A stretch of 64,000 nucleotides of DNA. Source: an uncultured virus (IMG/VR IMGVR_UViG_3300043429_001189). Its lineage: Duplodnaviria > Heunggongvirae > Uroviricota > Caudoviricetes. Below the pieces are notes generated by a model, which did no database searches, was not told the DNA's origin, and was given only the letters and a program-made list of their open reading frames with translations. Location of the stretch: positions 62,001 through 126,000 of the IMG/VR virus record IMGVR_UViG_3300043429_001189. One strand, given 5' to 3'. Shown here one piece after another: positions 49,267 to 63,535 of this stretch (position 1 is the stretch's first letter; every line of letters starts with the position of its first letter). The translations under genes and the position numbers were made by a program.

Positions 49267-50040
49267 CTATATTAATGCGTACTTGTCTATTGTATTAATT
49301 TTTTCAATTAAAAATTGGCCCAAATATTTCTCAAATTCTTTAAATTCTGATGTGTTTCTAAAAATAACCCATTCATCGGCCCATTCTGTGATTCCCCAAT
49401 TTATTTTTCCAATAGGTTCTCGATTCAAAGAAATGTGTATTCCATGAACAGGTCTGTATTCATTTTCATAATCAAAATAAGAAAATCTTTTTTTAACTAA
49501 TTCATATAAAAAAACTTCGTCGTGATTATGTAATCTCTTTTCAATTAAATCGGCGTAAGGAGGTAATGGATAGTAATTATCCCACAAGGAAAAATGAAGC
49601 CCTGTTAATCTGCGATACTGCTGGTTTTCATCAGCAACTTTTCTAACAATATTGCTGTATGGAAGACCTGTTTTTTCCATATCTTTGACGTGAAGAGATA
49701 ACAAATCTTTTTGCAAACAAATTATGTCAATATCGGAAATGTAAATATATTTAGATTTAACCGTTGGTTCAATTATAAATCTTGATAAATTTGGAACACA
49801 AGTTATTTTGTTCTTTTTATGAATAATTACGCCAACTTCAATCTTATTGATTAAAAACCTATTTGGAAATATTTTTGAAATGTAAGATATAGCCTTTTGT
49901 GTCTCTTCACTTAATTCATCATCATAACCTATTTCAATAAATGCAGTTGGATTATGATACAAATGTGAAAAAACAAACAAAGGAATAAAATTATTGTAAG
50001 ACTTATTACAACATGTATAAATATTTAAGGTTTCTTTCAT
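49267..50040 (-). CDS. Putative GT-A glycosyltransferase
   Basis: 'YIYISDIDI' DxD-like motif. Confidence 0.55.
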   Translation of the reverse strand: MKETLNIYTCCNKSYNNFIPLFVFSHLYHNPTAFIEIGYDDELSEETQKAISYISKIFPNRFLINKIEVGVIIHKKNKITCVPNLSRFIIEPTVKSKYIYISDIDIICLQKDLLSLHVKDMEKTGLPYSNIVRKVADENQQYRRLTGLHFSLWDNYYPLPPYADLIEKRLHNHDEVFLYELVKKRFSYFDYENEYRPVHGIHISLNREPIGKINWGITEWADEWVIFRNTSEFKEFEKYLGQFLIEKINTIDKYALI

Positions 50041-50588
50041 TAGATTAAGTGTTCTATAAATTTTTTATTGCCTCCTCTATACCAGTGATATAGATATAAA
50101 CCTCTTATTAAATAAAATTTTAATTGGTGCTTTTGTAATTTCCAATGCAAATCATTATCCACGCCAAGCATACCTTCAGCTTTAAATCCGCCGATTGTTT
50201 TCCAGGTGCTTTTTTTAATTAAAATTAAAAAGCCACTCATAACAGCATTTTTTGGCTTATTTGTTACATCAATAACCGATGAATCATAAATAACTTTCAT
50301 TTTTTCACCAAAATCTCTATGATATTTTATGTTATCATTAAAAATATCAACACCAGGCGCAATTTGCCATTCGCATCCTACTCTGTTTGTAAATCCCGTA
50401 AAACAAGAAGCGTCGGGATTTTCCATTAAAGCTTTTTCTATGATTAATCCATAATCAGGTGTTGTGAAAATTGTATCACCGTCAACTATACAAGCCCAAT
50501 CATCATCATTCGGCAAAATTTCCATGAAAGAATTATAATACTGGCCTATATTTTTATTTGCATCAAAAGGGATTGTATAATATATCAT
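50040..50588 (-). CDS. GT2-like glycosyltransferase
   Basis: 'IVDGDTIF', 'IGGF..GVDNDL', 'YLYHWY'. Confidence 0.75.
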   Translation of the reverse strand: MIYYTIPFDANKNIGQYYNSFMEILPNDDDWACIVDGDTIFTTPDYGLIIEKALMENPDASCFTGFTNRVGCEWQIAPGVDIFNDNIKYHRDFGEKMKVIYDSSVIDVTNKPKNAVMSGFLILIKKSTWKTIGGFKAEGMLGVDNDLHWKLQKHQLKFYLIRGLYLYHWYRGGNKKFIEHLI

Positions 50589-51646
50589 ATTGGTTTTCCG
50601 TTTATAAAGTTTTGCAACTGTCCGTAATCTTTTCTAATTTTTACTTTTTTTGCAATGCTTGAATTGTGTGTCCAAAGCCAAAAGTAATCTGAGCAAATAA
50701 TATTAGAGTTTAATGGTTTAATATTAATTGGGTACTTCCATAATACATAGTTAAAAGATATCTGATCTCTTTTGGAATATTTTAAAACTTGTTCCCACCA
50801 CATATTACATAAAAATCGAACTTCTTTAACGTTTTTTCGATAAATAATACCTGTTTGGACCATTCCCCAATTTTCAGGATATCCTTCATTCTTATATATT
50901 TCTGTTTGTTTAATTAAGATTTTTTCATCATCTTTTTTAAATTTAATACAAGCATCTCTTTCCTGGTAAACACAAATTCTGTCAGGGTGCGCAGAAACTG
51001 CAAAAATGTCTTGAGGAGTCAAAAATTTTTGCATAAATTGTTGCGGAGAATTAATAATTTCTACAGTACCATCAATCCATATAGAAGTTTCATATTCAGG
51101 TAAAAATAAATGAGGTAAAATTTTTAACGCTCTTGCTCTTTTTGTTTGATCCAAAAAATTTAAAATTTTAGGTATTTCTCTTATTTCCCATTTTTTATAT
51201 CTGCCTGGTCTAATAAGATTGGTAAAACAAATATAATCCCAAGAATCGTCATAATTGCCTATATCTTTAAGATTATCATAATCACCCGAAATACATGTGT
51301 ATATTACTTTTTTATTTTTGGTTTCAATAAATTCATTTGCTTCTATATTTTGATAAAAAAATTCGATTGATTCATTGGCTTTTTCAGGTCTATGTACAGT
51401 AATTGCTTCTACAGAAAATTCGTCAATTTTATATTGTAGTCCTGTTTTTCTACCTTGCTTAAGCCAATGTCTTAAAGCTAAAAATTCATTATTAATGTTT
51501 TTAGCTTTTAATTGCGAATTAATAAAAATATAATCTTGCCAGTCAAAATCTTCGGGTACATGCGGATGATTTCTTAATCGTTCAAGTTGCTTTGTTGTCG
51601 CGTCTTCGCGTAGCCTCTCAAATTTTTCATTTCTTGGGTCCTTCAC
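50585..51646 (-). CDS. DUF616 (TOD1/MUCI70-like) glycosyltransferase
   Basis: 'VIYTCISGDYD', 'KILPHLFLPEYETSIWIDG', 'RDQISFNY'. Confidence 0.85.
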   Translation of the reverse strand: MKDPRNEKFERLREDATTKQLERLRNHPHVPEDFDWQDYIFINSQLKAKNINNEFLALRHWLKQGRKTGLQYKIDEFSVEAITVHRPEKANESIEFFYQNIEANEFIETKNKKVIYTCISGDYDNLKDIGNYDDSWDYICFTNLIRPGRYKKWEIREIPKILNFLDQTKRARALKILPHLFLPEYETSIWIDGTVEIINSPQQFMQKFLTPQDIFAVSAHPDRICVYQERDACIKFKKDDEKILIKQTEIYKNEGYPENWGMVQTGIIYRKNVKEVRFLCNMWWEQVLKYSKRDQISFNYVLWKYPINIKPLNSNIICSDYFWLWTHNSSIAKKVKIRKDYGQLQNFINGKPI

Positions 51647-51674
51647 TTTATGCGTTTTTTATAGCATATATATC

Positions 51675-51709
51675 AAAAAAGGAAAGGTACACTTAAGTAC
51701 CTTTCCTAT
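51675..51709 (-). terminator. Intrinsic terminator after TROVE gene
   Basis: AGGAAAGGTAC...GTACCTTTCCT stem followed by a T-tract on minus. Confidence 0.85.
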
Positions 51710-51729
51710 ATTAATTAAAAAAACAACAA

Positions 51730-53355
51730 CTATTTATTTTCAATTTCATCCCACGCTTTTATAATTGCGTCAGCATATTGTGCCTCTTTACCTGTCCATC
51801 CTGTTAAAATTGCTCCGCGATATAATGTTTCAGGCAAAACAGAATTTGTATATCCGCCCACCTGAACAGAAAACACATTTACCTTTGGATTTACAGTTTT
51901 ACGATATTGTCGAATAACAGCAAGAACGTCGAGATATGATGAATAATTTGAAGATCTGTAAGTAAACTCTTTAGGTAATTCATCATGCCCAAACAATTCG
52001 CCTCGGCCAGCCTGCATATCTGAATAAATAAAAACTGTGTCATAATGAATTTTTTCGTTTAGTGCAGCATTCCAAAATAACCAAAGACCATTTTCGGTGT
52101 TAGATCCTGTTCTTTTACCTTTCTCTGTAATGTCTGTAAGTTGACTTAATATTCCGTTTCTTTTGGAAATAGGTGTCATTGTTAATCTGTCGCCAAAAAC
52201 TCCAACCTCTCCATTGTCAGCTTGTTTTGCAGTTATAACTGAAGACAAATTAGCAATATCAGCAATAGTAATTTTCCCATATTCCGAATTAAATGTGCCC
52301 CAGGCAGAACCAGAATTGTCTGATAAGCATGCAACCTTGCCTTTTAATTTAGGCATATTTGCAACTGAAATATCAATACACTCTTCAAGAGCATCAAGAA
52401 TTTGCTGCTTATAAGGAATGTCAGTGCTTTTAATAATGTTAAAAGCAGTATAATACCTAAATGGGAATTGCTTTCCTTGTAAAACTCCTGCTTTTAATTG
52501 CTCAAGAATTTGTGTTGCTTGATCTTGTGATAATTCAGATTTTGAAAAAATTCCGCGCAAATTCCTCAACAAGGCCATATGAGGAACTTTAATTGTATTC
52601 AAAATTTCCACCCATGTCTTGCCACTTGATTTTAACATTTCCCAAGTTTGCTCAGTTTCTTTTATCGCAACGGTACCTGTACGCATCAATTCATTGATAG
52701 TTTCATTGTTTGCGTGAGATAACCTTACCAAGTCAATTAGCCTTTTTCCTTTATACTTATTAATTTGATATCTAGACATTGATTCTAAAGAATCAGCCCA
52801 AGACCTCTTAAGAATTGAAGGTAAACCTTTTTTAGACCCGTTTAAATACATATAATATTCAAATTGGTTAGTTATGTCGTCAGGACGCGGTGTAATTTCT
52901 TTAGCAAAAGCGCGCATATAACCTGGATTTTTGGCATTAAATTCCACCCGATTTTTGTGACGAATTGCTCTAACATAAATAACCGCGGGATTCAAGCGCA
53001 TTAAGTATTCATTACGTAATTCCTTGGCAAACTCCAAGGTTCCTAAATAATCATAATCCAATGCGTTGTCAATTACTCGCTCAAACACTTGCCCAGCATC
53101 TTCATTTGGGGATATCAAGTCAGCAAAAATAAAATCCGCAGATAATTTCGAAGGATATTCAACCTTGATACCTTTTCTATAGTACTGCGGTTCGCCAAAA
53201 ATTGAGCTCGTTGCAACCATTTTGAGTGTTTGCAAAGGGTTAACTTTAAATGAAGTACCGCCCATAAAGTTTTGTTCAGCTTGCGCTTCATACATAGAGA
53301 TTTCTGCTTTTCTTTGAACGACTTCCTTGGATGCTGATGAGCTTAATCTTGACAT
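51730..53355 (-). CDS. TROVE-domain / Ro60-like (Rsr) RNA-binding protein with C-terminal vWA domain
   Basis: 'PHMALLRNLR', 'QFPFRYYTA', MIDAS-like 'LSDNSGS', 'YSDMQ'. Confidence 0.9.
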   Translation of the reverse strand: MSRLSSSASKEVVQRKAEISMYEAQAEQNFMGGTSFKVNPLQTLKMVATSSIFGEPQYYRKGIKVEYPSKLSADFIFADLISPNEDAGQVFERVIDNALDYDYLGTLEFAKELRNEYLMRLNPAVIYVRAIRHKNRVEFNAKNPGYMRAFAKEITPRPDDITNQFEYYMYLNGSKKGLPSILKRSWADSLESMSRYQINKYKGKRLIDLVRLSHANNETINELMRTGTVAIKETEQTWEMLKSSGKTWVEILNTIKVPHMALLRNLRGIFSKSELSQDQATQILEQLKAGVLQGKQFPFRYYTAFNIIKSTDIPYKQQILDALEECIDISVANMPKLKGKVACLSDNSGSAWGTFNSEYGKITIADIANLSSVITAKQADNGEVGVFGDRLTMTPISKRNGILSQLTDITEKGKRTGSNTENGLWLFWNAALNEKIHYDTVFIYSDMQAGRGELFGHDELPKEFTYRSSNYSSYLDVLAVIRQYRKTVNPKVNVFSVQVGGYTNSVLPETLYRGAILTGWTGKEAQYADAIIKAWDEIENK

Positions 53356-53381
53356 AATAAAAATTGGTTTAATAAGTTAAA

Positions 53382-53463
53382 AAATCGAGAATATCAAAAA
53401 GAGTTTTTAATAAAGTATCATTTACAAATTGATTTTGAAGTAACTCTTTTTCCGCTTCGATTT
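53382..53463 (-). ncRNA. Y-RNA candidate, copy A
   Basis: Terminal stem AAAUCGA/UCGAUUU, inner stem AAAAAGAGUU/AACUCUUUUU, conserved GAAGCGG..GUUACUUCAA..UUCUC; immediately upstream of TROVE. Confidence 0.7.
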
Positions 53464-53464
53464 G

Positions 53465-53537
53465 AGCAACAAGCGAGACTCGAACTCGCAACATTTAGTT
53501 TGGAAAACTAACACTCTACCAATTGAGCTATTGTTGC
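53465..53537 (-). tRNA. tRNA-Gly(UCC)
   Basis: Full cloverleaf GCAACAA/TTGTTGC, loop TT-TCC-AA, T-loop TTCGAGT; no encoded CCA. Confidence 0.92.
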
Positions 53538-53542
53538 TTATT

Positions 53543-53627
53543 TTTTCTTGAGAAAATTATTAAAGGTGTTGGTGTGTGAAAATTCTAAAACAATTTTGAA
53601 GTAACCTTTAATACCGCTTCAAGAAAA
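53543..53627 (-). ncRNA. Y-RNA candidate, copy B
   Basis: Stems UUUUCUUGA/UCAAGAAAA and UAUUAAAGGU/ACCUUUAAUA with the same conserved motifs. Confidence 0.7.
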
Positions 53628-53631
53628 TATT

Positions 53632-53682
53632 TTTTTTAAAGAACGTTTGTAGATATAATATACAAGTAATGATAAATAGTTT
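53632..53682 (-). promoter_or_regulatory. Promoter (AAAC-N15-GTATATTA) plus boxA-like GTTCTTTAAAA; duplicate of 56442-56492
   Basis: 33-nt exact identity 53632-53664 = 56442-56474. Confidence 0.7.
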
Positions 53683-53708
53683 TTGTGATTTGATATTTTT
53701 TTTTAAAT

Positions 53709-54455
53709 TTAATCAAACGGCAAAGAAACTCCTCTTTTTCCAACAACGGCACAAGATAAAAAGTTTGCAAAACTTATTGAAGCGTTCAAATCCTTTGTTT
53801 CTAAATAAGTAATACCAAAAGCCGCAACAAAAGTATCTCCTGCACCACTTACATCAATGGTTTCTTTTGGATTTTTAAGAGCGAATGTTTTGTTGTTTAT
53901 CATCGCTCCTCTTGCGCCCAGTGTAACAATAATATTACTTTTATCAGAAATATGCAAATTGTTTGACATTTCGCTTTCGTTTAACTTAATAAATGTAAAT
54001 TCTTTAACAATTTCATCAGTTAAAATTTTCTTGGAATCCAACAAAGTTAATTTGCCATTTTTTGCTATTTTTAATAAATCATCATGCCCTAAAAAACCTT
54101 TGTTATAATCACTTACAATTACTAAATCCGCTTCTTTAATCTCTTTTATATTTTCTTCTGTGATGTTAATTTTTCCAACTGGTTGCAATTCTCCGTCATC
54201 AATTCTAACAATCATTTGGTTTGACTTTTCATCAACAATCCTTGTTTTTTTAATCAATTCTTTCTGATGCCAAAATGTTATACTTGTCTCGGGATTTATT
54301 GATTTAATGTTTTCTACAACATTTCCTGCCATTCCAGGGTTTTGTGTAGTTTTAATTGGATTAAAAACTGGAACAGGCGCTTCAGGACACAGCCTAACAG
54401 TTTTTCCATAAATAAATTCATCAGTACAAAGTTCACCTATAACTATTACTTTCAT
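53709..54455 (-). CDS. PfkB-family kinase, HldE/RfaE kinase domain-like
   Basis: 'RLCPEAPVPV', 'SDYNKG', 'DVSGAGDTF'. Confidence 0.85.
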   Translation of the reverse strand: MKVIVIGELCTDEFIYGKTVRLCPEAPVPVFNPIKTTQNPGMAGNVVENIKSINPETSITFWHQKELIKKTRIVDEKSNQMIVRIDDGELQPVGKINITEENIKEIKEADLVIVSDYNKGFLGHDDLLKIAKNGKLTLLDSKKILTDEIVKEFTFIKLNESEMSNNLHISDKSNIIVTLGARGAMINNKTFALKNPKETIDVSGAGDTFVAAFGITYLETKDLNASISFANFLSCAVVGKRGVSLPFD

Positions 54456-54921
54456 AATTTAAAATTTTTGTTGTTGAATATTTTTCAATTCTTGGAAAAA
54501 AAATTAGTTCTTTAGCATATTCACTTCCTATAACTCCATTTTTGCGATACTCTTCTCCTACTATTAAATAATCAGGGTTTAATCTTTTAATTGCATTTTT
54601 AAGTTCTTCTGAGTCATCAAAAACAATAATGTTTGATACATAAACTATCGAGCTTAACATCTCAATTCTATCTTTTAAAGAATTATACGGTCGCAATTCG
54701 CCTTTTAACTCTTTAATTCTACGATCTGTGTCAATTCCTACTGTTACTTCCCCGTATGAATAAGCATATTTAAGTAAACGAATATGACCGTTGTGTAACA
54801 CATCAAAAGTACCGTTAACCCAAACCTTTTTATTTAATTTACTATAATGATTTGGCGCAGGAAGACTGGAATAAAAATCCCAGTCTTCATCATCAAGAAA
54901 TTTAGTGGTTTCTTTATTCAT
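54433..54921 (-). CDS. Cytidylyl/adenylyltransferase, HldE/RfaE domain II-like
   Basis: 'NGTFDVLHNGH', 'KGELRP', 'STTKI'. Confidence 0.85.
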   Translation of the reverse strand: MNKETTKFLDDEDWDFYSSLPAPNHYSKLNKKVWVNGTFDVLHNGHIRLLKYAYSYGEVTVGIDTDRRIKELKGELRPYNSLKDRIEMLSSIVYVSNIIVFDDSEELKNAIKRLNPDYLIVGEEYRKNGVIGSEYAKELIFFPRIEKYSTTKILNYESNSYR

Positions 54922-54926
54922 GTGTA

Positions 54927-55313
54927 CTACTTTTGCGAATCGCCAGCCCAAACTCGGTAACTGTCTTCATCAAAGTGTTGTGTTGATACTTCAAAAACAA
55001 TGCCATCTGTAAGAGCTTCAAGTTGATGCGGTTGTCCTGGATATTGTCGAACAGAGTCTCCTTCTCTTAATGTTATTTCATTGACTTTTGCGGTTTGCGT
55101 ATCTATCCAACGATAAATAAATTCGCCTTCTTTAACATACCAAGTTTCATCTTTAAGCATGTGATAATGCATTGAAAATTTTGCGCCTGCTTTAAAACAC
55201 AAAAGTTTTCCGCAATAAAATTCATTATTTTCAAATACAATCTCATGTCCCCATCCTTTAGGAACATTGCATTCTTTGCACTCCTTTGCATTGAATATGT
55301 TTGGTTTTTTCAT
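54927..55313 (-). CDS. Cupin-fold sugar isomerase-like protein
   Basis: 'KGWGHE..YCGKLL..SMHYH..KDETW..FEVST.HFDEDSYR'. Confidence 0.75.
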   Translation of the reverse strand: MKKPNIFNAKECKECNVPKGWGHEIVFENNEFYCGKLLCFKAGAKFSMHYHMLKDETWYVKEGEFIYRWIDTQTAKVNEITLREGDSVRQYPGQPHQLEALTDGIVFEVSTQHFDEDSYRVWAGDSQK

Positions 55314-55342
55314 AAAAATATATTTGATTTATATATTCAGAG

Positions 55343-55413
55343 CAGAAGCATTAGGATTCGAACCTAAAATAACGCTTTTGGAGAGCGCCATGATACCTTT
55401 TCACCATACTCCT
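55343..55413 (-). tRNA. tRNA-Trp(CCA)
   Basis: Cloverleaf AGGAGTA/TGCTTCT, loop CT-CCA-AA, T-loop TTCGAAT. Confidence 0.9.
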
Positions 55414-55417
55414 GTAT

Positions 55418-55591
55418 TTATTCACAGTATTTATTTTTTCTGCACTTGTATTTATTCTCTTCTTTCTTTTTATCTTTAAATACTTTAGGGGCAAACCTTC
55501 CATCATAGAATCCTTGTTCCTGGGCATTTTTTCTTTGTTTACCCATTTCAATTTTCCTAAGTTGTTCTGAAGTTATCACAAATTTTTTCAT
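55418..55591 (-). CDS. Small basic protein (57 aa), not in ORF track
   Basis: MKKFVITSEQLRKIEMGKQRKNAQEQGFYDGRFAPKVFKDKKKEENKYKCRKNKYCE; fills the gap between tRNA-Gln and tRNA-Trp. Confidence 0.7.
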   Translation of the reverse strand: MKKFVITSEQLRKIEMGKQRKNAQEQGFYDGRFAPKVFKDKKKEENKYKCRKNKYCE

Positions 55592-55613
55592 ATTAAAATT
55601 TTTAAATTGTGAG

Positions 55614-55684
55614 TTATCTGATCTGGGCTCGAACCAGAAATTTAGGACTCAAAAACCTACGTGATACCATTTCACTATCAGACA
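55614..55684 (-). tRNA. tRNA-Gln(UUG)
   Basis: TGTCTGA/TCAGATA acceptor, loop TT-TTG-AG, T-loop TTCGAGC. Confidence 0.88.
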
Positions 55685-55689
55685 ATATG

Positions 55690-55763
55690 TAGGCCTGGCA
55701 GGGTACGATCCTGCAACCCCTGAATTAAAAGTTCAGTGCTCTATCCATTTGAGCTACAAGCCT
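55690..55763 (-). tRNA. tRNA-Lys(UUU)
   Basis: AGGCTTG/CAGGCCT acceptor, loop CT-TTT-AA; atypical T-loop ATCGTAC. Confidence 0.88.
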
Positions 55764-55770
55764 ATATTTG

Positions 55771-55842
55771 AGCCTTCTGTCGGACTCGAACCAACATCTT
55801 CTAAATTACAAATTTAAAGCTTTACCATTAAGCTAAGAAGGC
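55771..55842 (-). tRNA. tRNA-Thr(UGU)
   Basis: GCCTTCT/AGAAGGC acceptor, loop TT-TGT-AA. Confidence 0.9.
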
Positions 55843-55850
55843 AATTTGTG

Positions 55851-55926
55851 TCCGAGAAGAAGGGTTCGAACCTTCATGATGTCTGGTTCCCAAAACCAGA
55901 GGCTTAGCCAATTAGCCCATTCTCGG
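55851..55926 (-). tRNA. tRNA-Pro(UGG)
   Basis: CCGAGAA/TTCTCGG acceptor, loop TT-TGG-GA. Confidence 0.9.
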
Positions 55927-55936
55927 AAATTTGATT

Positions 55937-55978
55937 AAAAACAAAAAGGTCCAGATAATTTAATTACCTGGACCTTTT
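55937..55978 (-). terminator. Intrinsic terminator of the putative attenuator, upstream of the tRNA array
   Basis: AAGGUCCAGGUAAU-UAA-AUUAUCUGGACCUU stem followed by UUUGUUUUU, ending about 10 nt before tRNA-Pro. Confidence 0.85.
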
Positions 55979-56000
55979 AAGAATAATAATTACTATTATA

Positions 56001-56120
56001 CTAAGGTCCAGTATCTGGCCACGTAGACGGTTGTTGAACACAACCAATAACACCAACCGGTGTAGCAACTGTTTTGCTTGTTGCTTTTGAAATTTTAGCT
56101 GATGTGATTTGTTGTTTCAT
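56001..56120 (-). CDS. Putative attenuator leader peptide (39 aa), not in ORF track
   Basis: MKQQITSAKISKATSKTVATPVGVIGCVQQPSTWPDTGP*; A-rich start context; its 3' end contains the antiterminator arm CUGGACCUU. Confidence 0.7.
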   Translation of the reverse strand: MKQQITSAKISKATSKTVATPVGVIGCVQQPSTWPDTGP

Positions 56121-56139
56121 ATTTTTAATTTTAATTTAG

Positions 56140-56211
56140 TGGCGGGGCCGGGAATCGAACCCGAACCTCCAGGTTATGAGCCTGGCGAACTACCGTTATT
56201 ACCACCCCGCA
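56140..56211 (-). tRNA. tRNA-Met(CAU), probably initiator
   Basis: 1:72 mismatch (U/C) above GCGGGG/CCCCGC; loop CT-CAT-AA; weak D-stem. Confidence 0.85.
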
Positions 56212-56220
56212 ATGTTTTAG

Positions 56221-56295
56221 AGATCATAGAAAGAATCGAACTTTCGCTTACCGGCGCGGACGCCCTTTCCGGCTTTCTACCAACAGAATATGGTC
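56221..56295 (-). ncRNA. tRNA-like RNA with non-canonical anticodon arm
   Basis: Acceptor GACCATA/TATGATC, D-arm TTCT-GTTGGT-AGAA, T-arm GAAAG-TTCGATT-CTTTC; GCCGG/CCGGT stem encloses 14 nt instead of 7. Confidence 0.7.
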
Positions 56296-56317
56296 AATTT
56301 TTACTATTATATATTTT

Positions 56318-56441
56318 TTCTTTTCTTGAGAATTTTAACCAAAGGCGTTAAGAAAGGGGGAAAGCAAATTTCAGTGTTAAAACCTATATTGCTTAGTAGA
56401 GCTATATTGAAGTAACCATCGGTACCGCTTCAAGAAAAGAA
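56318..56441 (-). ncRNA. Y-RNA candidate, copy C (longer loop)
   Basis: Stems UUCUUUUCUUGA/UCAAGAAAAGAA and ACCGAUGGU/GCCUUUGGU with the same conserved motifs. Confidence 0.7.
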
Positions 56442-56492
56442 TTTTTTAAAGAACGTTTGTAGATATAATATACACAAGATAATAAATAGTTT
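56442..56492 (-). promoter_or_regulatory. Promoter (AAAC-N15-GTATATTA) plus boxA-like element driving the RNA operon
   Basis: Duplicate of 53632-53682. Confidence 0.7.
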
Positions 56493-56510
56493 TCAGAAAA
56501 TAAAAAATAT

Positions 56511-56726
56511 TTATTTATTTTTTGTGCTTTCTGCTATGATATAAAAAATGTATTTAATCATAACAAAAATATACGGCATGCAAGCTGCAATTCCCAATTT
56601 TAGATGCCATATTTGGTACCCAAACATATAAGAAAAACCGGCCAAAACTCCTAAAAAGAGTGGGAGAAATATTACATAAATAATAAAATATGCCTCCCAC
56701 TGTAATCTATCAAAGAATAATTTCAT
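56511..56726 (-). CDS. Small membrane protein
   Basis: Two hydrophobic segments. Confidence 0.6.
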   Translation of the reverse strand: MKLFFDRLQWEAYFIIYVIFLPLFLGVLAGFSYMFGYQIWHLKLGIAACMPYIFVMIKYIFYIIAESTKNK

Positions 56727-56743
56727 ATATTTTTATATTTTTA

Positions 56744-57292
56744 TTACCACAATCCATCAGAACTTTTAATATCCTTGACTTTAGACAAATCCCAATCAAA
56801 ATCTGAATGAACTTTAGATTTACTAAATATGCCTTTCATATATCTGACATTTCTAATATCCCAATTTCTTAGATTACCATCAAAAGGAGTATCATAAAAC
56901 ATAGATGCCATGTTGGTTACTTTACTAACATTCCACCCGCTAACGTCACCCTTAAAAGGTGTCCCTTCAAACATACCTTCCATGTTGGTTACATTGCTAA
57001 CGTCCCATTCGCTAATGTCACCTTTAAAATCTGACCCATAAAACATGTAGGACATATTTTTTACATTACTAACATTCCATTCGCTAATGTTGCCATTAAA
57101 AGGCATTTCTGCAAATAAGAATGACATGTCTTTAATTCGCGAAACATCAACATGACTTAAATCTGCATTAGGCCCAAATTTAGCTATTTCATTTTCAATT
57201 ATCGACTCTAAAGATTTCCGATCTATTGCATAAATAACTTTGTTTTGAGCAGCTTCGTTAAGAAACTGATCGAAAGATTTTAAATTTTTCAT
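56744..57292 (-). CDS. DUF285 (BspA-like) repeat protein
   Basis: About 5 repeats of F-x-G-D-I-S-x-W-(D/N)-V-S-x-V-x-x-M; starts MKNLKSFDQFLNEA. Confidence 0.9.
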   Translation of the reverse strand: MKNLKSFDQFLNEAAQNKVIYAIDRKSLESIIENEIAKFGPNADLSHVDVSRIKDMSFLFAEMPFNGNISEWNVSNVKNMSYMFYGSDFKGDISEWDVSNVTNMEGMFEGTPFKGDVSGWNVSKVTNMASMFYDTPFDGNLRNWDIRNVRYMKGIFSKSKVHSDFDWDLSKVKDIKSSDGLW

Positions 57293-57296
57293 TTTT

Positions 57297-58073
57297 TTAA
57301 ATTTTTATATGTTTCAGACCATACATTCTATCTACATTATCAGCCTTTGATAAATTCCATTGACTAATATCGCCTTTAAACTTAGAGTCTAAGAACATTA
57401 TAAATACATCTCTGACATTGCTAACGTCCCATTTGCTAATGTCGCCGTTAAATCGAGATTCTGCAAACATGTGCGTCATATCTCTAACTTTGCTAACATT
57501 CCACTTGCTGATGTCACCGTTAAAAGTTGTCTTTTGAAACATGTGCGACATATCAATAACTTTGCTGACATCCCACTTGCTGATGTCGCCATTAAATTTA
57601 GACCCTTCAAACAATGATGACATCATTTCAACATTACTTACATCCCATTGACTAATGTCGCCGTTAAATTTAGAATATGCAAACATATCAGACATATCAC
57701 GTACATTGCTTACATCCCACTTGCTAACATCGCCGTTAAACGAAGAATGACGAAACATTCCCCACACAGTGCGAGCATTACTAACATTCCACTTGCTAAC
57801 ATCGCCGTTAAATTTTGAGAATGCAAATGTATCATTAAAATTAGTAACATTGCTTACATCCCACTTGCTAACGTCGCCGTTAAATTTTGTACCTGAAAAA
57901 GCGGCGCTTATATCGGTTAGACCTGAAACATCAATGTGATTTAAGTCAGCATTTGGTCCTAGCAATTGAATTTCTTTTAAAATAATTGGTTTTAATTCTT
58001 TTGCGTTCTTTGGGACAATAATTTCGCGTTCTGCTTCATTAAGAAACTGATCAAATGTTTTTAAATTTTTCAT
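57297..58073 (-). CDS. DUF285 repeat protein
   Basis: About 8 repeats of 24 aa (72 bp); starts MKNLKTFDQFLNEA. Confidence 0.9.
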   Translation of the reverse strand: MKNLKTFDQFLNEAEREIIVPKNAKELKPIILKEIQLLGPNADLNHIDVSGLTDISAAFSGTKFNGDVSKWDVSNVTNFNDTFAFSKFNGDVSKWNVSNARTVWGMFRHSSFNGDVSKWDVSNVRDMSDMFAYSKFNGDISQWDVSNVEMMSSLFEGSKFNGDISKWDVSKVIDMSHMFQKTTFNGDISKWNVSKVRDMTHMFAESRFNGDISKWDVSNVRDVFIMFLDSKFKGDISQWNLSKADNVDRMYGLKHIKI

Positions 58074-58098
58074 TTACTATGTTTTTTTTTATATATAT

Positions 58099-58938
58099 TT
58101 AGTTAAACAAATCTTCTTTAGACGTTACGTCTCGCAGATTTGTCAAATTCCACATATGAACACTTCTTTTAAATTTAGATCCTTGGAAGATACTTTCAAT
58201 GTATTGCACTTGTCTTACGTCCCACTTACTAATGTCTTGATTAAATGATGAGCCATTAAACATAAAACTCATATTTTCTACATTGCTAACGTTCCATTTG
58301 CCGATGTTTTGATTAAATCGAGAGTCAGCAAACATCCATTGCATATCGGTAACATTTAATACATTCCAATTGCCGATGTCTTGATTAAATTTCGATAACC
58401 TAAACATATATGACATATCAGTTACTCGTCTTACGTTCCACTTGCTGATGTCACCGTTAAATTGTGATTCCGTAAACATTCCACGCATCAGCTCTACATT
58501 ACTCACGTTCCAACCACTGATATCTCCTTTAAATTTGGAATCTTTGAACATATTAGACATATCAATGACATTACCAACATCCCATTTGCTGATATCTTTA
58601 TTGAACTCTGATCCTTCAAACATACCTGACATATCTTTTACTTTGCCAACATTCCACTTGCTGATGTCACTATTAAAATGAGAATACAAAAACATATTTT
58701 TCATAGAAGTAACATTGCTAACATCCCACTTGCTGATATTGCCTTTAAATTGTGACCCTTCAAACAAGGATACCATGTTGGTAACTTGCGAAACGTCAAT
58801 ATGATTCAGATCTGCTTTAGGTCCAAGTCTAGCAATTTCGCTTTCTACTATATCCTTTAAAGTTTGTCGATCTTTAGCAATAATAGTTTCTTGTGTAGCT
58901 TCATTAAGAAAATGTTCAAAAGTTTTTAAATTTTTCAT
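58099..58938 (-). CDS. DUF285 repeat protein
   Basis: About 9 repeats; starts MKNLKTFEHFLNEA. Confidence 0.9.
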   Translation of the reverse strand: MKNLKTFEHFLNEATQETIIAKDRQTLKDIVESEIARLGPKADLNHIDVSQVTNMVSLFEGSQFKGNISKWDVSNVTSMKNMFLYSHFNSDISKWNVGKVKDMSGMFEGSEFNKDISKWDVGNVIDMSNMFKDSKFKGDISGWNVSNVELMRGMFTESQFNGDISKWNVRRVTDMSYMFRLSKFNQDIGNWNVLNVTDMQWMFADSRFNQNIGKWNVSNVENMSFMFNGSSFNQDISKWDVRQVQYIESIFQGSKFKRSVHMWNLTNLRDVTSKEDLFN

Positions 58939-58971
58939 TTACTATGTTTTTATTAATTTTAATATTGCACA

Positions 58972-59643
58972 TTATTTTTTTGCATATGAAGAGATTTTCC
59001 AATTTGAAGTATCCCCCTTGAAAGCTGAGTTATTAAACATGTCGGTCATATCCTCAACCTTACTAACATTCCACTTGCTGATATCTTGATTAAATTCTGA
59101 AGATTGAAACATTCCAGCCATATCATAAACATTACCTACATTCCATTTGCTGATGTCTTTGTTAAATCTTGAGTCTTGAAACATCCAAGACATATCAGTA
59201 ACATTACTAACATTCCACTTGCTGATATCTTGATTAAATTCTGAATAAGCAAACATACCAGTCATAACTTTTACGTTGCTTACATTCCACCTGCTGATAT
59301 CTTGATTAAATTCTGATGATGCAAACATATAGGCCATTAATCGAACATTCCGAACATTCCATCCTGAAATGTTACCATTAAAGACTGACTCCTGAAACAT
59401 ATAGGACATGTTTTCAACTTGACTAACATCCCATTTACTTATGTTGCCGTTAAAATCTGAATTTTTAAACAACCCCGACATATCTTTAACTTTTGATACA
59501 TCAATATGATTTAAATCCGCCGTAGAACCTTGTGTTTTGATTGCATCTTCAATTAGCTTTATTAAATCTGCTTTATCTTTAGCAATAATTGTTGTGCCTG
59601 CTGCTTCATTAAGAAACTGCTCAAAGGTTTTAAAATTTTTCAT
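58972..59643 (-). CDS. DUF285 repeat protein
   Basis: About 7 repeats; starts MKNFKTFEQFLNEA. Confidence 0.9.
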   Translation of the reverse strand: MKNFKTFEQFLNEAAGTTIIAKDKADLIKLIEDAIKTQGSTADLNHIDVSKVKDMSGLFKNSDFNGNISKWDVSQVENMSYMFQESVFNGNISGWNVRNVRLMAYMFASSEFNQDISRWNVSNVKVMTGMFAYSEFNQDISKWNVSNVTDMSWMFQDSRFNKDISKWNVGNVYDMAGMFQSSEFNQDISKWNVSKVEDMTDMFNNSAFKGDTSNWKISSYAKK

Positions 59644-59685
59644 TTACTTTGTTTTTTTATACTTCAATTCGGGTATTTACAAATA

Positions 59686-59711
59686 TTATATACTACTTTT
59701 TCCAAAAGTTC
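59686..59711 (-). promoter_or_regulatory. Bipartite promoter variant GAAC-N14-GTATATAA
   Basis: Upstream of the DUF285 array. Confidence 0.5.
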
Positions 59712-59755
59712 TTAAAATATAAATATTATTTTTACCGATAGTTTTATTTTTTAAA

Positions 59756-60052
59756 TTAATTTGAAGATTCTTCTGTCTCTTCAACAACTTGTTTTTTTTC
59801 TTTTTGGATTTGATTCACAATGTATCCCGCAACCGCAAATTCAGCCCCTGCCCATAGCACTGCATCAGATGCTGTTAATTTTTCTACATTTTCATAAAAA
59901 AACCAAACCATTCCTGATTGGCCAATTATAAATGCAATACTTGATTCTATTCTTTTTTTGGAAAAAAAGGATTCTTTTGATGTGTATATAAATCCTATTT
60001 CTTGTATAAACCATTTGATATTAGTCCAACCAAAAAACCATTTTTTGTTCAT
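59756..60052 (-). CDS. Small membrane protein
   Basis: 'SKKRIES' followed by two moderately hydrophobic helices. Confidence 0.6.
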   Translation of the reverse strand: MNKKWFFGWTNIKWFIQEIGFIYTSKESFFSKKRIESSIAFIIGQSGMVWFFYENVEKLTASDAVLWAGAEFAVAGYIVNQIQKEKKQVVEETEESSN

Positions 60053-60114
60053 TTTACATAGGCATATTTTTTAATTACTTTATATATCCATAAATGTATA
60101 ATGAACAAAGCATA

Positions 60115-60396
60115 TTATGATTGATACACTTCTTTGTAAATTTCGGCTAATTTAGTATAATCAGCAACTCCATATATACGAGTGGCAACGTCGCCGTTTT
60201 TAATAAAAACTGTATGTGGAACGCTTTTAATGTTATATTTACGCGCCAGCTCAAAATTTGCATCTTCATCAATATCCAAATCTTGAATCTCTACAGTATT
60301 TTGGTATTCTTCAGAAAATTTTTGAAATGAAGGTGCCATTGCTTTACAAGGTCCGCACCAGCTGGCAGAAAATTTAATAATCTTATTCATATTCAT
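60115..60396 (-). CDS. Thioredoxin
   Basis: 'FSASWCGPCK', 'IKSVP'. Confidence 0.95.
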   Translation of the reverse strand: MNMNKIIKFSASWCGPCKAMAPSFQKFSEEYQNTVEIQDLDIDEDANFELARKYNIKSVPHTVFIKNGDVATRIYGVADYTKLAEIYKEVYQS

Positions 60397-60592
60397 TCTT
60401 TAAATTTATATAAATCTTAACTTTTTCGTTTTCTTTTGCCGTCATAAACTCGTTATAAATCATTAATGAAAACTCATCTTTAAAAATTAATGAATCCGGG
60501 TTGACTATGTAATTTTTAAAAAAATTATACTCGCTGTTCTTTGCGCATTGAATAATTTTCTCAGTATCTAAAATTCTTTTATTAAATCCCAT
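60383..60592 (-). CDS. Hypothetical protein
   Basis: 69-aa ORF starting MGFNKR. Confidence 0.6.
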   Translation of the reverse strand: MGFNKRILDTEKIIQCAKNSEYNFFKNYIVNPDSLIFKDEFSLMIYNEFMTAKENEKVKIYINLKNEYE

Positions 60593-60748
60593 AATCTTGT
60601 TAGTTAAAAATCTGTTTGTGTGCTTTGTAGACGTTTATCCCAAAAAAAGTTAGCATTCTGTATTTCATAATATATAGCTTTATTTTAGGCATTAATCTCT
60701 GATATACACCAATCCTCAAACAGATTTTTAATTTGTTTATATATCATA

Positions 60749-61018
60749 CTATTCTTGATTCAATTCTTTCATTCCACGGTGAATATCCTTGATAGTGTAA
60801 ATACCTTGTGGACTATTGTCAACAGGATAGACTTTTGTTTTTGGCGGCAAAAATTTTGCGATTGGTGATTTCCAATAAAAATTTTTATAGCCTCGGAAAG
60901 CAACCTCAACTATTTCCACATCATCATCGTCCAAAATATCTGAAATGTCCGTATCTTCATCAATTTTAATATCTAACAATGAATTATCTTTAATAATAAC
61001 TGCGAATAGTGTACTCAT
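60749..61018 (-). CDS. Hypothetical protein
   Basis: 89-aa ORF. Confidence 0.6.
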   Translation of the reverse strand: MSTLFAVIIKDNSLLDIKIDEDTDISDILDDDDVEIVEVAFRGYKNFYWKSPIAKFLPPKTKVYPVDNSPQGIYTIKDIHRGMKELNQE

Positions 61019-61040
61019 ATTTATGTTTTTTAAATGTTAA

Positions 61041-61712
61041 TTAATGTTTTTTAACCGCATCTTTAACTCTGTTAATTAAGCTAGAAATTTCTTCGACATT
61101 ATCCACCGACCAAGCTTCTGTTTTTAGGATAACAAAACCTCCATCAGTACGGTCAAGACCTAAGTCTGAAACAACTTCTATGGTTAAAGTTTGATCTTCT
61201 CCATTAACGCAGTCGCCTTCCTGCCAAAATTCAAATTTTGCTGACATAAGTACTGCTTCTTGTGAATCTAAATCTTTTTTATTTTCTAAAGTATTATCCA
61301 TAATTTCTTCAGGTTTCTTTTTCATAATTAAACTATTCTGCCAGCTGCTTGTATCAAATCCTTCACCTAAATAAATAAAATGCTTGTCTTTTGATGACCA
61401 GTGTCCACACTGAGACTTTGATCTTATTAAAACAGGTTCATTTGCATAAGCAAAAGCTAATCCGTTTTCATTAACCGCAACATAATTGTATTGGTCAGGT
61501 ATGTCTTTTTCGGATAGCTGTTTAATCTTTCTTATGACAGAATGTTCCCAATTACTAGAGTCAAAGCCATAATCAATAAATTCCATTCCTTCTCCATACC
61601 AAATATCTGAAAAATGTCGTGGCACATCTTTAAATCCTTTAGCAAGACCGTCAGGATCAACAGCAGCCCATTCACAATTTTCAGGTATGTCCTGTTGTGA
61701 TAATTTTTTCAT
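61041..61712 (-). CDS. Hypothetical protein with a tandem duplicated ~60-aa domain
   Basis: 'LSQQDIPENCEWAAVDPDG' and 'LSEKDIPDQYNYVAVNENG' repeats. Confidence 0.65.
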   Translation of the reverse strand: MKKLSQQDIPENCEWAAVDPDGLAKGFKDVPRHFSDIWYGEGMEFIDYGFDSSNWEHSVIRKIKQLSEKDIPDQYNYVAVNENGLAFAYANEPVLIRSKSQCGHWSSKDKHFIYLGEGFDTSSWQNSLIMKKKPEEIMDNTLENKKDLDSQEAVLMSAKFEFWQEGDCVNGEDQTLTIEVVSDLGLDRTDGGFVILKTEAWSVDNVEEISSLINRVKDAVKKH

Positions 61713-61732
61713 ATAAATAATTATTTAATTTG

Positions 61733-62026
61733 TTAAAGATCCCAACTCAAGATTAAAGTGTGTACAATTTCACCTTTATTGTTGCGCTCTTCTTTTTCAT
61801 TTACCGTTATTCCATTATCTTTCAACTTTTGTATCAAAGAATTTTGAAAGCGCTTTTTGTCTGTGATCTGCAAAGAAGATGCATTCTTTTTAACAGCACT
61901 TAAACACAATTCAGCAATCTTTTCATAATTGATATTATTAAAAGATGGATTAGTGCCTTCTTCATTTTGCTTTTTAACAAGTTCAGTGCGCGCTTCTTTT
62001 AGTTGTTCAAACAGAGTTTTTTCCAT
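61733..62026 (-). CDS. Hypothetical protein
   Basis: 97-aa ORF. Confidence 0.6.
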   Translation of the reverse strand: MEKTLFEQLKEARTELVKKQNEEGTNPSFNNINYEKIAELCLSAVKKNASSLQITDKKRFQNSLIQKLKDNGITVNEKEERNNKGEIVHTLILSWDL

Positions 62027-62029
62027 AAT

Positions 62030-62383
62030 TTATATTTTGTTATTTTTTATAAAATCTTCTAGAATTTCATTTATGCAAGTACCGCCATCATAATAAACAG
62101 CAGTATAAGAAATGCTGCCATCTGCATTGGTGTGAAATACTTGTATGTCTTCATATGCAGCTTTAGAGATTTCTTTCTCAATCATCCAAATGGTATTATC
62201 TGAAAAATTAAAAATATAGTCTTCAAAATCTTCACACTCACTTGAATAATAATCATAATAAGTCACACCAGGAGGCAACCCTTCAGTTAACGGTCCAATC
62301 TGTTCTTTGCACCATTCTTCGATTGTCTTACCTTGTAAATTAATTTGTTTTAATTTTCCAATGTCTAATCTAGTTTCACTCAT
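62030..62383 (-). CDS. Hypothetical protein
   Basis: 117-aa ORF. Confidence 0.6.
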   Translation of the reverse strand: MSETRLDIGKLKQINLQGKTIEEWCKEQIGPLTEGLPPGVTYYDYYSSECEDFEDYIFNFSDNTIWMIEKEISKAAYEDIQVFHTNADGSISYTAVYYDGGTCINEILEDFIKNNKI

Positions 62384-62522
62384 ATTATTTAAAATTATAA
62401 ATTCTTCATTGTTTTGTCGATTAATTTTTTACTTATTAAATAAAAAAATCTTGAATTTTACAACTCAAGATTATTTAACTCCTTATTAAGGATATTTGGT
62501 ATTTTAGGGGTAGGCGTGTTTT

Positions 62523-62894
62523 TTAGTCTTGAGTAAAATCTTCAATCTTGTCATTGAAAGAAGATTGTTGATATGAAGATAAATTCTTAATTTCATCGCG
62601 TTTTCTTGGAGTTAACTCAATTACAGTGTACCCCATTCGGTAATACTTCTTTTCTGCTGCTGTCAAATTTTTATTACGGCGTTTTGCAACTTCTTTTAAA
62701 GCTTCTTTGTCATTACCTGTTTCCATAACATCGCCCCAAGTTCCTTTAACAAAAATTGGGTATGTTCTTTTAGTGCCAATTGAACCTCCGTAATAAACCA
62801 AAGCAAATTGGTCAGATAAATTTACTTCATTACCTTCGTTGAGAAATTCTTCCGATTCGTTGATAAAATTATCAAAGTTTTGAATATGTTTCAT
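62523..62894 (-). CDS. Hypothetical protein with capsid-targeting-like N-terminus
   Basis: Starts MKHIQNFDNFINES. Confidence 0.7.
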   Translation of the reverse strand: MKHIQNFDNFINESEEFLNEGNEVNLSDQFALVYYGGSIGTKRTYPIFVKGTWGDVMETGNDKEALKEVAKRRNKNLTAAEKKYYRMGYTVIELTPRKRDEIKNLSSYQQSSFNDKIEDFTQD

Positions 62895-62906
62895 ATTTGT
62901 GTTTTT

Positions 62907-63521
62907 TTATCCTACAATTGAAAAACTTAATTGATTTTCAGAAACTACCAAATTATAAACTTTATTAAATAGAGTCTCAACCTCACGTTTAATATCTGAT
63001 TCAAGCTGTGCCCTACTTTTTTGTGCAAAGTATTGTTTTAGAGATGCTTGTTTAAAAATATTTGCAGTACTCCGGTAATTGCGTGCGCTTCCTACAAATG
63101 AAACATTGACAGTTCTAGTTTTTGCCGAAGGTATATTACTGATTTGCATGTCTTTTCCCAACTTAGATTTCACCAAATCATTGTTTGCATTTTGCATCAC
63201 TGCATCAACAAATAGTTTCAATCCAGCTAAAAAATCGCCCATTTCGTTTGCATTAAAATACGGTCCGCTACCTTGAGAAACAATTGTGTATTTATCTCCC
63301 CAACCGCTTTCTGCTATGTCACTTGTTACTGCATCATACCTACCTGTGCTTATTTTGCTTGGAACGGCCATAACAGGTACTTTGCCTCCAGCATATTGGA
63401 TGGTAGCAGAATACCTTAAATCGCCGTATTCACCTACTCTCCATTGTGGCTTTCCTCCTGTCAAAGAAGCCTCGTTAAGATTTTCATTGATAAAATTATC
63501 AAAATTTTGAATGTGTTTCAT
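62907..63521 (-). CDS. Hypothetical protein with capsid-targeting-like N-terminus
   Basis: Starts MKHIQNFDNFINE. Confidence 0.7.
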   Translation of the reverse strand: MKHIQNFDNFINENLNEASLTGGKPQWRVGEYGDLRYSATIQYAGGKVPVMAVPSKISTGRYDAVTSDIAESGWGDKYTIVSQGSGPYFNANEMGDFLAGLKLFVDAVMQNANNDLVKSKLGKDMQISNIPSAKTRTVNVSFVGSARNYRSTANIFKQASLKQYFAQKSRAQLESDIKREVETLFNKVYNLVVSENQLSFSIVG

Positions 63522-63535
63522 ACTTGTGTTTTTTT

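Follow-up and report, generated by a model that had tools for sequence, protein, structure and literature searches.

A candidate leader-peptide attenuator inside a phage tRNA array, with leader codons matching the tRNAs that it would control

Why phages carry tRNA genes has been debated for decades, and codon compensation, the decay of host tRNAs and escape from tRNA-cutting defences have all been proposed. How these genes are controlled has, to our knowledge, hardly been addressed. This question is raised by a locus found in a 64,000-nucleotide stretch of DNA (the window), which corresponds to positions 62,001 to 126,000 of the 136-kb IMG/VR virus record IMGVR_UViG_3300043429_001189. In this locus, a short open reading frame (ORF) and an intrinsic terminator stand between a tRNA-Met gene and a block of five tRNA genes (Pro, Thr, Lys, Gln and Trp). 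It will be argued here, on the basis of sequence comparison and modelled RNA folds, that this element is probably a ribosome-mediated (leader-peptide) transcription attenuator of the five-tRNA block. The virus, an uncultured giant phage from freshwater, would then probably make these five tRNAs when ribosomes decode the codons of the leader slowly.

On the minus strand, the locus is ordered as tRNA-Met, 18 nt, the 39-codon leader ORF, a 22-nt A/U spacer, a hairpin followed by a U-run, about 10 nt and tRNA-Pro; tRNA-Thr, Lys and Gln, a 57-codon ORF, tRNA-Trp and a cupin gene follow (Table 1). A previous interpretation of this DNA, made from its letters alone and called here the sequence-only reading, had described the ORF (56120->56001), the terminator (55978->55937), the five tRNAs behind it and a tRNA-Gly(UCC) farther downstream, all of which are found where it had placed them. 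It had missed tRNA-Met, which lies directly upstream of the leader and is not gated by the terminator. The module is therefore located within the array and not at its head. The proposed switch is built on a duplicated 9-mer: CTGGACCTT occurs first at 56011-56003, where the leader ends, and a second time at 55954-55946, within the 3' arm of the terminator, while its complement occupies 55976-55968, in the 5' arm, exactly as had been noticed from the sequence.

The mechanism suggested by this arrangement is the following. Transcription would enter from upstream through tRNA-Met, and the leader would be translated while it emerges from RNA polymerase. The last three codons of the leader, together with its stop, would constitute the 5' strand of an antiterminator (region 2). 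A ribosome reaching the end of the leader in time would cover region 2 and leave regions 3 and 4 to form the terminator, and transcription would stop about 10 nt before tRNA-Pro. A ribosome that lags, or that is stalled at or before codon 33, would instead allow regions 2 and 3 to pair as soon as region 3 has been made. The terminator would then be blocked, and RNA polymerase would continue into tRNA-Pro, Thr, Lys, Gln and Trp. Since nearly half of the leader codons are read by the gated tRNAs, such a switch would report the decoding capacity of the cell and feed it back on tRNA synthesis. We infer from the layout that the leader is translated, that its translation is coupled to RNA polymerase and that the switch actually responds in this manner.

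Folding calculations are consistent with this choice between two structures. Folded alone, the terminator reaches -20.5 kcal/mol, and the antiterminator, which had been claimed to extend the 2:3 helix by AG/CU pairs and an A/U inner stem provided by the spacer, indeed folds in this form at -16.1 kcal/mol. The 2:3 helix is the minimum-energy fold of every transcript ending before region 4 (-17.6 to -18.7 kcal/mol), and in the full leader the best fold with the antiterminator and the best fold with the terminator differ by 1.3 kcal/mol. The comparison of the two states, which the sequence-only reading had proposed, thus yields two mutually exclusive folds, the nascent RNA being predicted to adopt the antiterminator, whose 5' strand lies within reach of a ribosome located at the end of the leader. 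When the 5' arm of the terminator pairs with the 70 nt upstream of it, the gain amounts to -11.1 kcal/mol, and only 0.6% of 3000 random genomic 70-mers do as well. None of the other terminator-like hairpins in the 136-kb record, which has 10 of them, gains as much, the runner-up reaching -7.8. Of the 1:2, 2:3, 3:4 layout initially described, the exclusive 2:3 and 3:4 folds are recovered, whereas the CCAG-AUA-CUGG hairpin that should form 1:2 attains only -6.2 kcal/mol with its flanking pairs. This is too weak for a strict trp-type attenuator with four segments; the 1:2 pause structure is a feature of that type and is not required for attenuation as such. For a leader RNA that is not translated, the predicted default is readthrough.

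The codons at which a ribosome would be effective can be estimated from its footprint, assumed from general knowledge to extend from -15 to +12 nt around the A site. In this model, an A site at codon 33 or earlier leaves region 2 wholly free; at codons 34-35 the ribosome hides part of it, and from codon 36 onwards all of it. This geometry designates Gln29, Gln30, Pro31, Ser32 and Thr33 as the last fully effective codons, Trp34 and Pro35 being marginal. These estimates combine the footprint overlap with unmasked energies; masked-fold energies with region 2 covered were not used because forced pairs override the mask.

A leader of this type has to be a genuine coding sequence, and codon usage marks it as such. 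Its in-frame codon log-odds amounts to 19.05 bits, as against -23.6 and -20.4 in the remaining frames. This score corresponds to the 85th percentile of genuine in-frame 39-codon windows and is reached by none of 686 non-coding windows. The start context, A-rich and without a Shine-Dalgarno sequence, is typical of the 148 ORFs of this phage, and translation of the leader is therefore suggested, even if the peptide has no family match and no homolog. These data bear on the possibility that the locus is a structured non-coding RNA, or a processing element of the tRNA precursor, in which the open frame is incidental; the T4 tRNA cluster, for comparison, contains stable small RNAs. The 212-nt spacer, including leader and terminator, folds far better than shuffled sequences (z -5.96), several consecutive hairpins are predicted, and the 5' part of the ORF has itself a z-score of -2.5. 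The first of these scores is however driven by the terminator, and the ORF carries a frame-specific codon signature no weaker than that of genuine genes. In addition, a Rfam scan of window positions 50000-64000 at E <= 1 returned the tRNAs and sub-threshold chance matches, with no T-box and no other family. The frames of the related leaders described below also stay open through varied sequence, including a difference of 24 versus 29 codons in one of them. A purely non-coding element is thus very improbable.

The codon composition of the leader was compared with the tRNAs behind it. Under strict wobble, 17 of the 38 post-initiator codons are read by the five gated tRNAs, for an expectation of 17.2% derived from the phage genes (p 7e-5, a nominal value since the locus was picked after reading 64 kb). 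At the amino-acid level, 19 of the 38 residues are K, Q, T, P or W (p 1.4e-4, nominal for the same reason), and neither value is reached in 2740 39-codon windows taken from the long ORFs of the phage. The set of five tRNAs is fixed by the locus, and the comparison of the own block with other blocks is independent of the choice of the locus: against the codon sets of other tRNA blocks, the same leader scores 5/38, 1/38 and 6/38 (p >= 0.5). The sequence-only reading had counted 19 K/Q/T/P/W codons out of 39 and had underlined that the four Lys are all AAA and the four Gln all CAA. These counts are exact, but the exclusive use of AAA and CAA is uninformative because these codons represent 85% of the Lys and 82% of the Gln codons genome-wide. 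Its observation that 8 of the last 11 residues match the gated tRNAs is also confirmed, the number being 6 under strict wobble. The cognate codons are scattered over the whole leader and show no clustering. A delay at any earlier cognate codon would postpone the arrival of the ribosome, which would explain this spread.

Related phages were also examined, where the sequence-only reading had suggested looking for a short ORF and a terminator ahead of tRNA arrays. In five related contigs, with 57-62% Ro60 identity, a TAnnTTTG box, a short ORF and a terminator stand in this order ahead of each of three tRNA blocks. Module A precedes a block composed of Ser(UGA), Arg(UCU), Pro(UGG), Ile(UAU), Met and Leu(UAA). 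Its leader, MKTILNILPSILRPSIRRS, has 18 codons, of which this block reads 11 (p 4e-5). From residue 7 to residue 19 the leader contains nothing but Ile, Leu, Pro, Ser and Arg, and of its codons 7-17 the block reads 10 of 11. Module C stands before Phe, Lys, Trp, Arg, Cys and ten more tRNAs. Its leader covers all 15 amino acids of this 15-tRNA block and contains no Leu, and 26-27 of 34 codons match when C is taken with D (p 1.5e-4 to 5.7e-4). Module B, located upstream of Glu, Asp, Met and Leu(UAG), keeps an L-E-D core 4-6 codons ahead of its switch strand, and its leaders comprise 24 or 29 codons with the frame kept open. Every leader, including that of the window, obtains its lowest p with its own block, comparisons with other blocks giving p >= 0.075. 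With regard to the proposed covariation of leader codons with the downstream anticodon set, the result is that each leader fits its own block best.

The switch is repeated as well. At the stop codon of the leader, a strand copies the 3' strand of the terminator: CUGGACCUU in the window, UCAGAGG in module B and AUCGAAGC in module C, to which module A adds a near-copy (AAAGGUCC versus AAAAGUCC in the terminator). This strand is invariant in 10/10 variants of module A, 8/8 of module B and 4/4 of module C, while the interior of the leader varies. Module B possesses an A/U mini-hairpin spacer like that of the window, and the antiterminator gain is significant for module B (p 0.012 and 0.04) and for one variant of module C (p 0.008), the other C variant giving p 0.13. 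Compensatory changes, which had also been proposed as a check, amount to a single C-G to T-A exchange in terminator C, where the leader strand can still pair via G-U; the window element itself has no homologs with which it could be compared. In favour of a link between leader and tRNAs, a module-A variant with no tRNA block downstream also lacks the ATG, a 27-nt deletion having removed the start of its leader. An automatic screen of all collected loci returned only modules A, B and C and one unconvincing candidate in locus L126.

Modules A-C thus share with the window a short ORF matched to its own block, a copy of the terminator 3' strand at the stop codon and a terminator placed just before the first tRNA. 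They differ from it by the absence of detectable sequence homology and by their position at the head of a block, right after the TAnnTTTG box, whereas the window module follows tRNA-Met. They also carry a conserved TCTTTGA[AC]AT motif between each terminator and the first tRNA (L136-L140; alignments A1-A3), a candidate processing site or promoter element that is absent from the window, where GTTCTTTAAAAAA is found instead after the repeated upstream block. Taken together, these modules indicate that the window element is best explained as one case of a design of this lineage, in which non-homologous leaders are fitted to different tRNA blocks.

The relatives also allow the specificity of the signal to be considered. 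According to a different proposal, the leader would be a general sensor of translation status, opened by any slowing of ribosomes (host shut-off, ribosome damage, amino-acid starvation or the timing in the infection cycle), and its codons would mirror the service rendered by the tRNAs. This proposal differs from codon-specific attenuation in specificity only. In the footprint model a delay anywhere ahead of codon 34 would be effective, cognate codons occur throughout the leader without clustering, the module C leader samples the 15 amino acids of its 15-tRNA block and the untranslated RNA is predicted to read through, all of which such a sensor would accommodate. It does not need, however, the own-block-specific enrichment observed in the window and in modules A and C, nor the restriction of module A residues 7-19 to Ile, Leu, Pro, Ser and Arg with 10 of 11 codons at positions 7-17 read by their own block. 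A general sensor is therefore distinctly unlikely.

Attempts to find homologs of the window element itself were negative. Neither the leader nor its switch was found in the cupin loci (79 non-self), in the Ro60 loci (11 non-self), in 24 metagenome loci or in 5 whole contigs of relatives. Among 1.84 billion protein representatives, only the leader peptide itself and two long repetitive proteins were matched; exact and gapped DNA patterns of the leader retrieved only the same phage, in a 238-kb contig, and phage GenBank records gave matches at the tRNA or gene level only. Synteny around the cupin gene was compared for the best 80 of 429 relatives' loci, among which a tRNA is present in just 5 of the 79 non-self loci and the leader in none; this comparison is uninformative, the cupin being a widespread auxiliary gene. 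The relatives selected by their Ro60 protein, on viral and metagenome contigs (the 11 non-self loci and the 24 others), reach at most 62% identity. Strain variants in contigs from four DNA runs have changes confined to the terminator loop (55961) and to the length of the T-run (55943), and one contig spanning ORF and terminator shows no change there; these contigs are near-identical and thus allow no covariation test.

Several observations weigh against the attenuator. The module does not head its transcription unit, tRNA-Met and a tRNA-like remnant preceding it, and no promoter was identified. With a 1:2 hairpin of -6.2 kcal/mol facing an antiterminator of -16.1, the classical state in which the lack of translation leads to termination is not predicted. 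The footprint and kinetic reasoning draws on general knowledge, and a ribosome stalled at Trp34 or Pro35, both counted in the codon match, would leave region 2 only partly exposed, with 3-6 of its 9 bases covered. The 5' part of the leader RNA is somewhat more structured than shuffled sequences, as indicated by the z-score of -2.5 given above, and the CAACAA Gln codons sit within predicted helices of this RNA. In the relatives, the codon match of module B is not significant alone (8/28, 7/28 and 4/23; p 0.06 to 0.5), nor is the antiterminator gain of module A (p 0.14-0.23). The motif TCTTTGA[AC]AT might belong to a promoter, and in one variant of module A the ATG is replaced by ATA. Finally, sequence homologs of leader and switch are limited to one phage species, which precludes a covariation or dN/dS test on this element, and none of the 5 other tRNA sites of the same phage carries a leader-plus-terminator module.

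The last two points would also be expected of an orphan small protein gene which, with its own terminator, had settled in a mosaic array. The tRNAs would then be obtained by leaky readthrough or processing, and both the pairing and the codon composition would be incidental. The arrays of the relatives are indeed mosaic, with HNH-endonuclease ORFs, a 45-codon ORF, a 190-codon gene and non-coding inserts, and the array of the window contains a second small ORF (57 codons) without a switch. The 9-mer may moreover come from a local hairpin duplication, GGCCAG-AUA-CUGGACC resembling a shortened copy of the terminator. This explanation nevertheless leaves unexplained the codon enrichment restricted to the own block (p 7e-5 versus p >= 0.5 with other blocks) and the exact placement of the duplicated strand at the stop codon. 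Both features are repeated by three non-homologous modules in the relatives, with invariant switch strands. An orphan gene is thus unlikely. The core of the sequence-only reading, in which the progress of the ribosome on the leader decides transcription into codon-matched tRNAs, is supported by every computational test that was run, and attenuation is retained as the probable function of the element.

The origin of the transcripts has some bearing on this conclusion. A scan for sigma-70-like sites gave none in the approximately 10 nt between the end of the U-run (55937) and the start of tRNA-Pro (55926), an interval that is probably too short to accommodate a promoter; the promoter type of the host may differ from the one scanned for. 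The spacer contains a TATAAT-like box belonging to a promoter-like match (56010->55983) that scores only 9/12. A promoter at this place was rejected as a bypass of the gate, given that its transcript would retain the terminator and lose region 2. The promoter of the unit is probably situated in the non-coding stretch upstream of tRNA-Met. The tRNA-like remnant located there, just upstream of tRNA-Met, has an intact T arm and an odd anticodon region, and ARAGORN calls it solely at a lowered threshold, as 'Arg(ccg) with a 7-nt intron'. At the other end of the unit, a search with the 57-codon ORF gave matches limited to the same phage.

Table 1. Features of the locus and of its surroundings (window coordinates; regions 1 to 4 are the pairing segments of the putative switch)
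Feature	Position	Strand	Details
DUF285 paralogues, four in tandem	56744-59643	-	
Upstream non-coding stretch	56212..56500	-	90-nt block (repeated upstream of tRNA-Gly), hairpin RNA, degenerate tRNA-like element
Conserved block and hairpin RNA upstream of tRNA-Met	56330-56500	-	
Degenerate tRNA-like element	56222-56295	-	
tRNA-Met(CAU)	56139..56211	-	ends 18 nt before leader ATG; ARAGORN; Rfam tRNA 46.8 bits
Leader ORF	56001..56120	-	39 codons and TAG stop, ATG start; peptide MKQQITSAKISKATSKTVATPVGVIGCVQQPSTWPDTGP
Weak hairpin CCAG-AUA-CUGG (segments 1:2)	56008..56018	-	uses first 4 bases of region 2
Region 2, putative antiterminator 5' strand	56003..56011	-	9-mer CUGGACCUU; codons 37-39 and first stop base
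A/U-rich spacer	55979..56002	-	mini-hairpin, would extend antiterminator; holds TATAAT-like box
Intrinsic terminator	55937..55978	-	16-bp stem (55978->55944) with 5 G-C pairs, 3-nt AAA loop, U-run; T-run continues to 55937
Region 3, terminator 5' arm	55968..55976	-	AAGGUCCAG; can pair with region 2 or region 4
Region 4, in terminator 3' arm	55954-55946	-	CUGGACCUU
tRNA-Pro(UGG), gated	55850-55926	-	ARAGORN, Rfam; about 10 nt after U-run
tRNA-Thr(UGU), gated	55770-55842	-	ARAGORN, Rfam
tRNA-Lys(UUU), gated	55689-55763	-	ARAGORN, Rfam
tRNA-Gln(UUG), gated	55613-55684	-	ARAGORN, Rfam
57-codon ORF between tRNA-Gln and tRNA-Trp	55418..55591	-	no family match, no terminator of its own
tRNA-Trp(CCA), last gated tRNA	55342..55413	-	ARAGORN, Rfam
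Conserved block and hairpin RNA upstream of tRNA-Gly	53538-53720	-	
tRNA-Gly(UCC), farther downstream	53464-53537	-	
TROVE-domain (Ro60-like) protein gene	51730-53355	-	

The nature of this virus can be approached from its gene content. The 136-kb record has an estimated completeness of 48%, and a near-identical 238-kb contig (estimated 84% complete) contains the locus identical letter for letter. The locus is also present in DNA runs labelled as freshwater, subsurface and wastewater metagenomes, and no RNA run is listed among the public runs that contain it. Four tandem paralogues with DUF285 (BspA-type) repeats share the N-terminus MKNLK(T/S)F(D/E)QFLNEA. Such repeat proteins suggested a giant eukaryotic virus, which is ruled out by the baseplate and other phage families encoded in the genome. 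A Shine-Dalgarno sequence is found in just 3-4% of the 148 phage ORFs, and the regions upstream of the starts are A-rich, a pattern that has been described for Bacteroidetes (PMC6847099).

Other RNA-related features were noted in the surroundings. The TROVE-domain (Ro60-like) protein is recognized by Pfam (1.6e-8) and by a PHROG annotated 'RNA-binding protein' (6e-46). Upstream of both tRNA-Gly and tRNA-Met stands a conserved block, about 90 nt long, with a long hairpin RNA behind it. It may be that these are Y-RNA-like partners with which the phage supplies Ro60 and that they are linked to tRNAs; the Rfam model YrlA gave a chance-level match only. In the relatives, a conserved, non-coding and well-folding insert of about 166 nt separates tRNA-Arg(UCU) from tRNA-Pro(UGG) (L088 10917-11082; L089 8917-9082; L090 6155-6320; L091 9198-9371; L093 9204-9369). 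It is missing in L086, and in L087 the same start runs into an ORF-bearing insert of 264 nt; it may be an intron-like or mobile RNA element. The mosaic nature of these arrays is also apparent from an HNH-endonuclease-like ORF after tRNA-Met and from the 190-codon gene between blocks (L101 1558-2154; L104 216-1063). Blocks C and D, for their part, are separated by the conserved 45-codon ORF (MMIESKIVARGSFPSS...) and by a tRNA-like element that was not called as a tRNA, about 85 nt in length and with the T-loop TTCGATT (L099 487-707; L104 1540-1760).

Compared with known regulatory systems, the putative attenuator combines familiar and unfamiliar properties. A close resemblance is seen with the multivalent attenuators of enterobacterial amino-acid operons, namely the thr leader with its Thr and Ile codons and the ilvGMEDA leader with its Ile, Leu and Val codons. 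As in the window, regulatory codons of several amino acids are spread along these leaders, terminator and antiterminator overlap and the position of the ribosome decides. The window element differs from them in that it would regulate tRNAs and not biosynthetic enzymes, the signal being the decoding capacity fed back on the decoders. Its antiterminator strand moreover overlaps the stop codon, it has no strong 1:2 helix and it is a phage element located inside a tRNA array. T-box riboswitches similarly choose between terminator and antiterminator according to the state of a specific tRNA. They bind the uncharged tRNA directly, without a leader ORF, their targets being aminoacyl-tRNA synthetase and amino-acid genes, in contrast to the window, where a leader ORF is present and no T-box was matched in the Rfam scan (E <= 1). 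In the attenuators of the pheL, trpL and hisL type, for which PMC3082878 presents the 1:2, 2:3, 3:4 model and PMC1183508 the principle, a ribosome at the stop masks segment 2 and leads to 3:4, whereas a pause at the regulatory codons leads to 2:3, as proposed here. The window element has no known sequence relation to these attenuators, and it differs from them by the absence of a single-codon run, by a 1:2 hairpin of only -6.2 kcal/mol and by a predicted default of readthrough when untranslated.

Phage tRNA genes have been viewed as a compensation for the loss of host tRNAs or as a counter-defence (PMC10264068, PMC11555353), and the abstracts of these two articles concern the tRNAs themselves, not the control of their transcription by a leader. 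This view provides a reason for tying the supply of tRNAs to decoding trouble. In a full-text search that leaves out most subscription journals, no description was found of tRNA genes, whether of phages or of cells, under the control of a leader-peptide attenuator, and searches for attenuator-like leaders of the E. coli tRNA-Phe genes gave no relevant result: this type of regulation was found described for amino-acid genes, and not for tRNA genes.

A more specific role can be envisaged, in which the leader senses damage during the conflict between phage and host. A defence tRNase would cut the host tRNAs for Lys, Gln, Thr, Pro or Trp, or these would decay after host shut-down, the ribosome would lag and replacement tRNAs would be made on demand. 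This role is rather doubtful at present, and its triggering by anti-phage tRNases is pure inference. If it were true, the modules of the relatives being considered as well, codon-matched leader attenuators would represent a general and unpublished feedback control of the tRNA arrays of large phages. The element is compact, about 200 nt, and its signature, a leader composition that tracks the content of the block, can be surveyed across thousands of phage genomes; it might also provide a codon-specific sensor part for synthetic biology. More broadly, if the attenuator proposed here is real, the phage would measure the decoding capacity available to it and supply tRNAs on demand, and leader-peptide attenuation would extend from the supply of amino acids to the decoding machinery itself.

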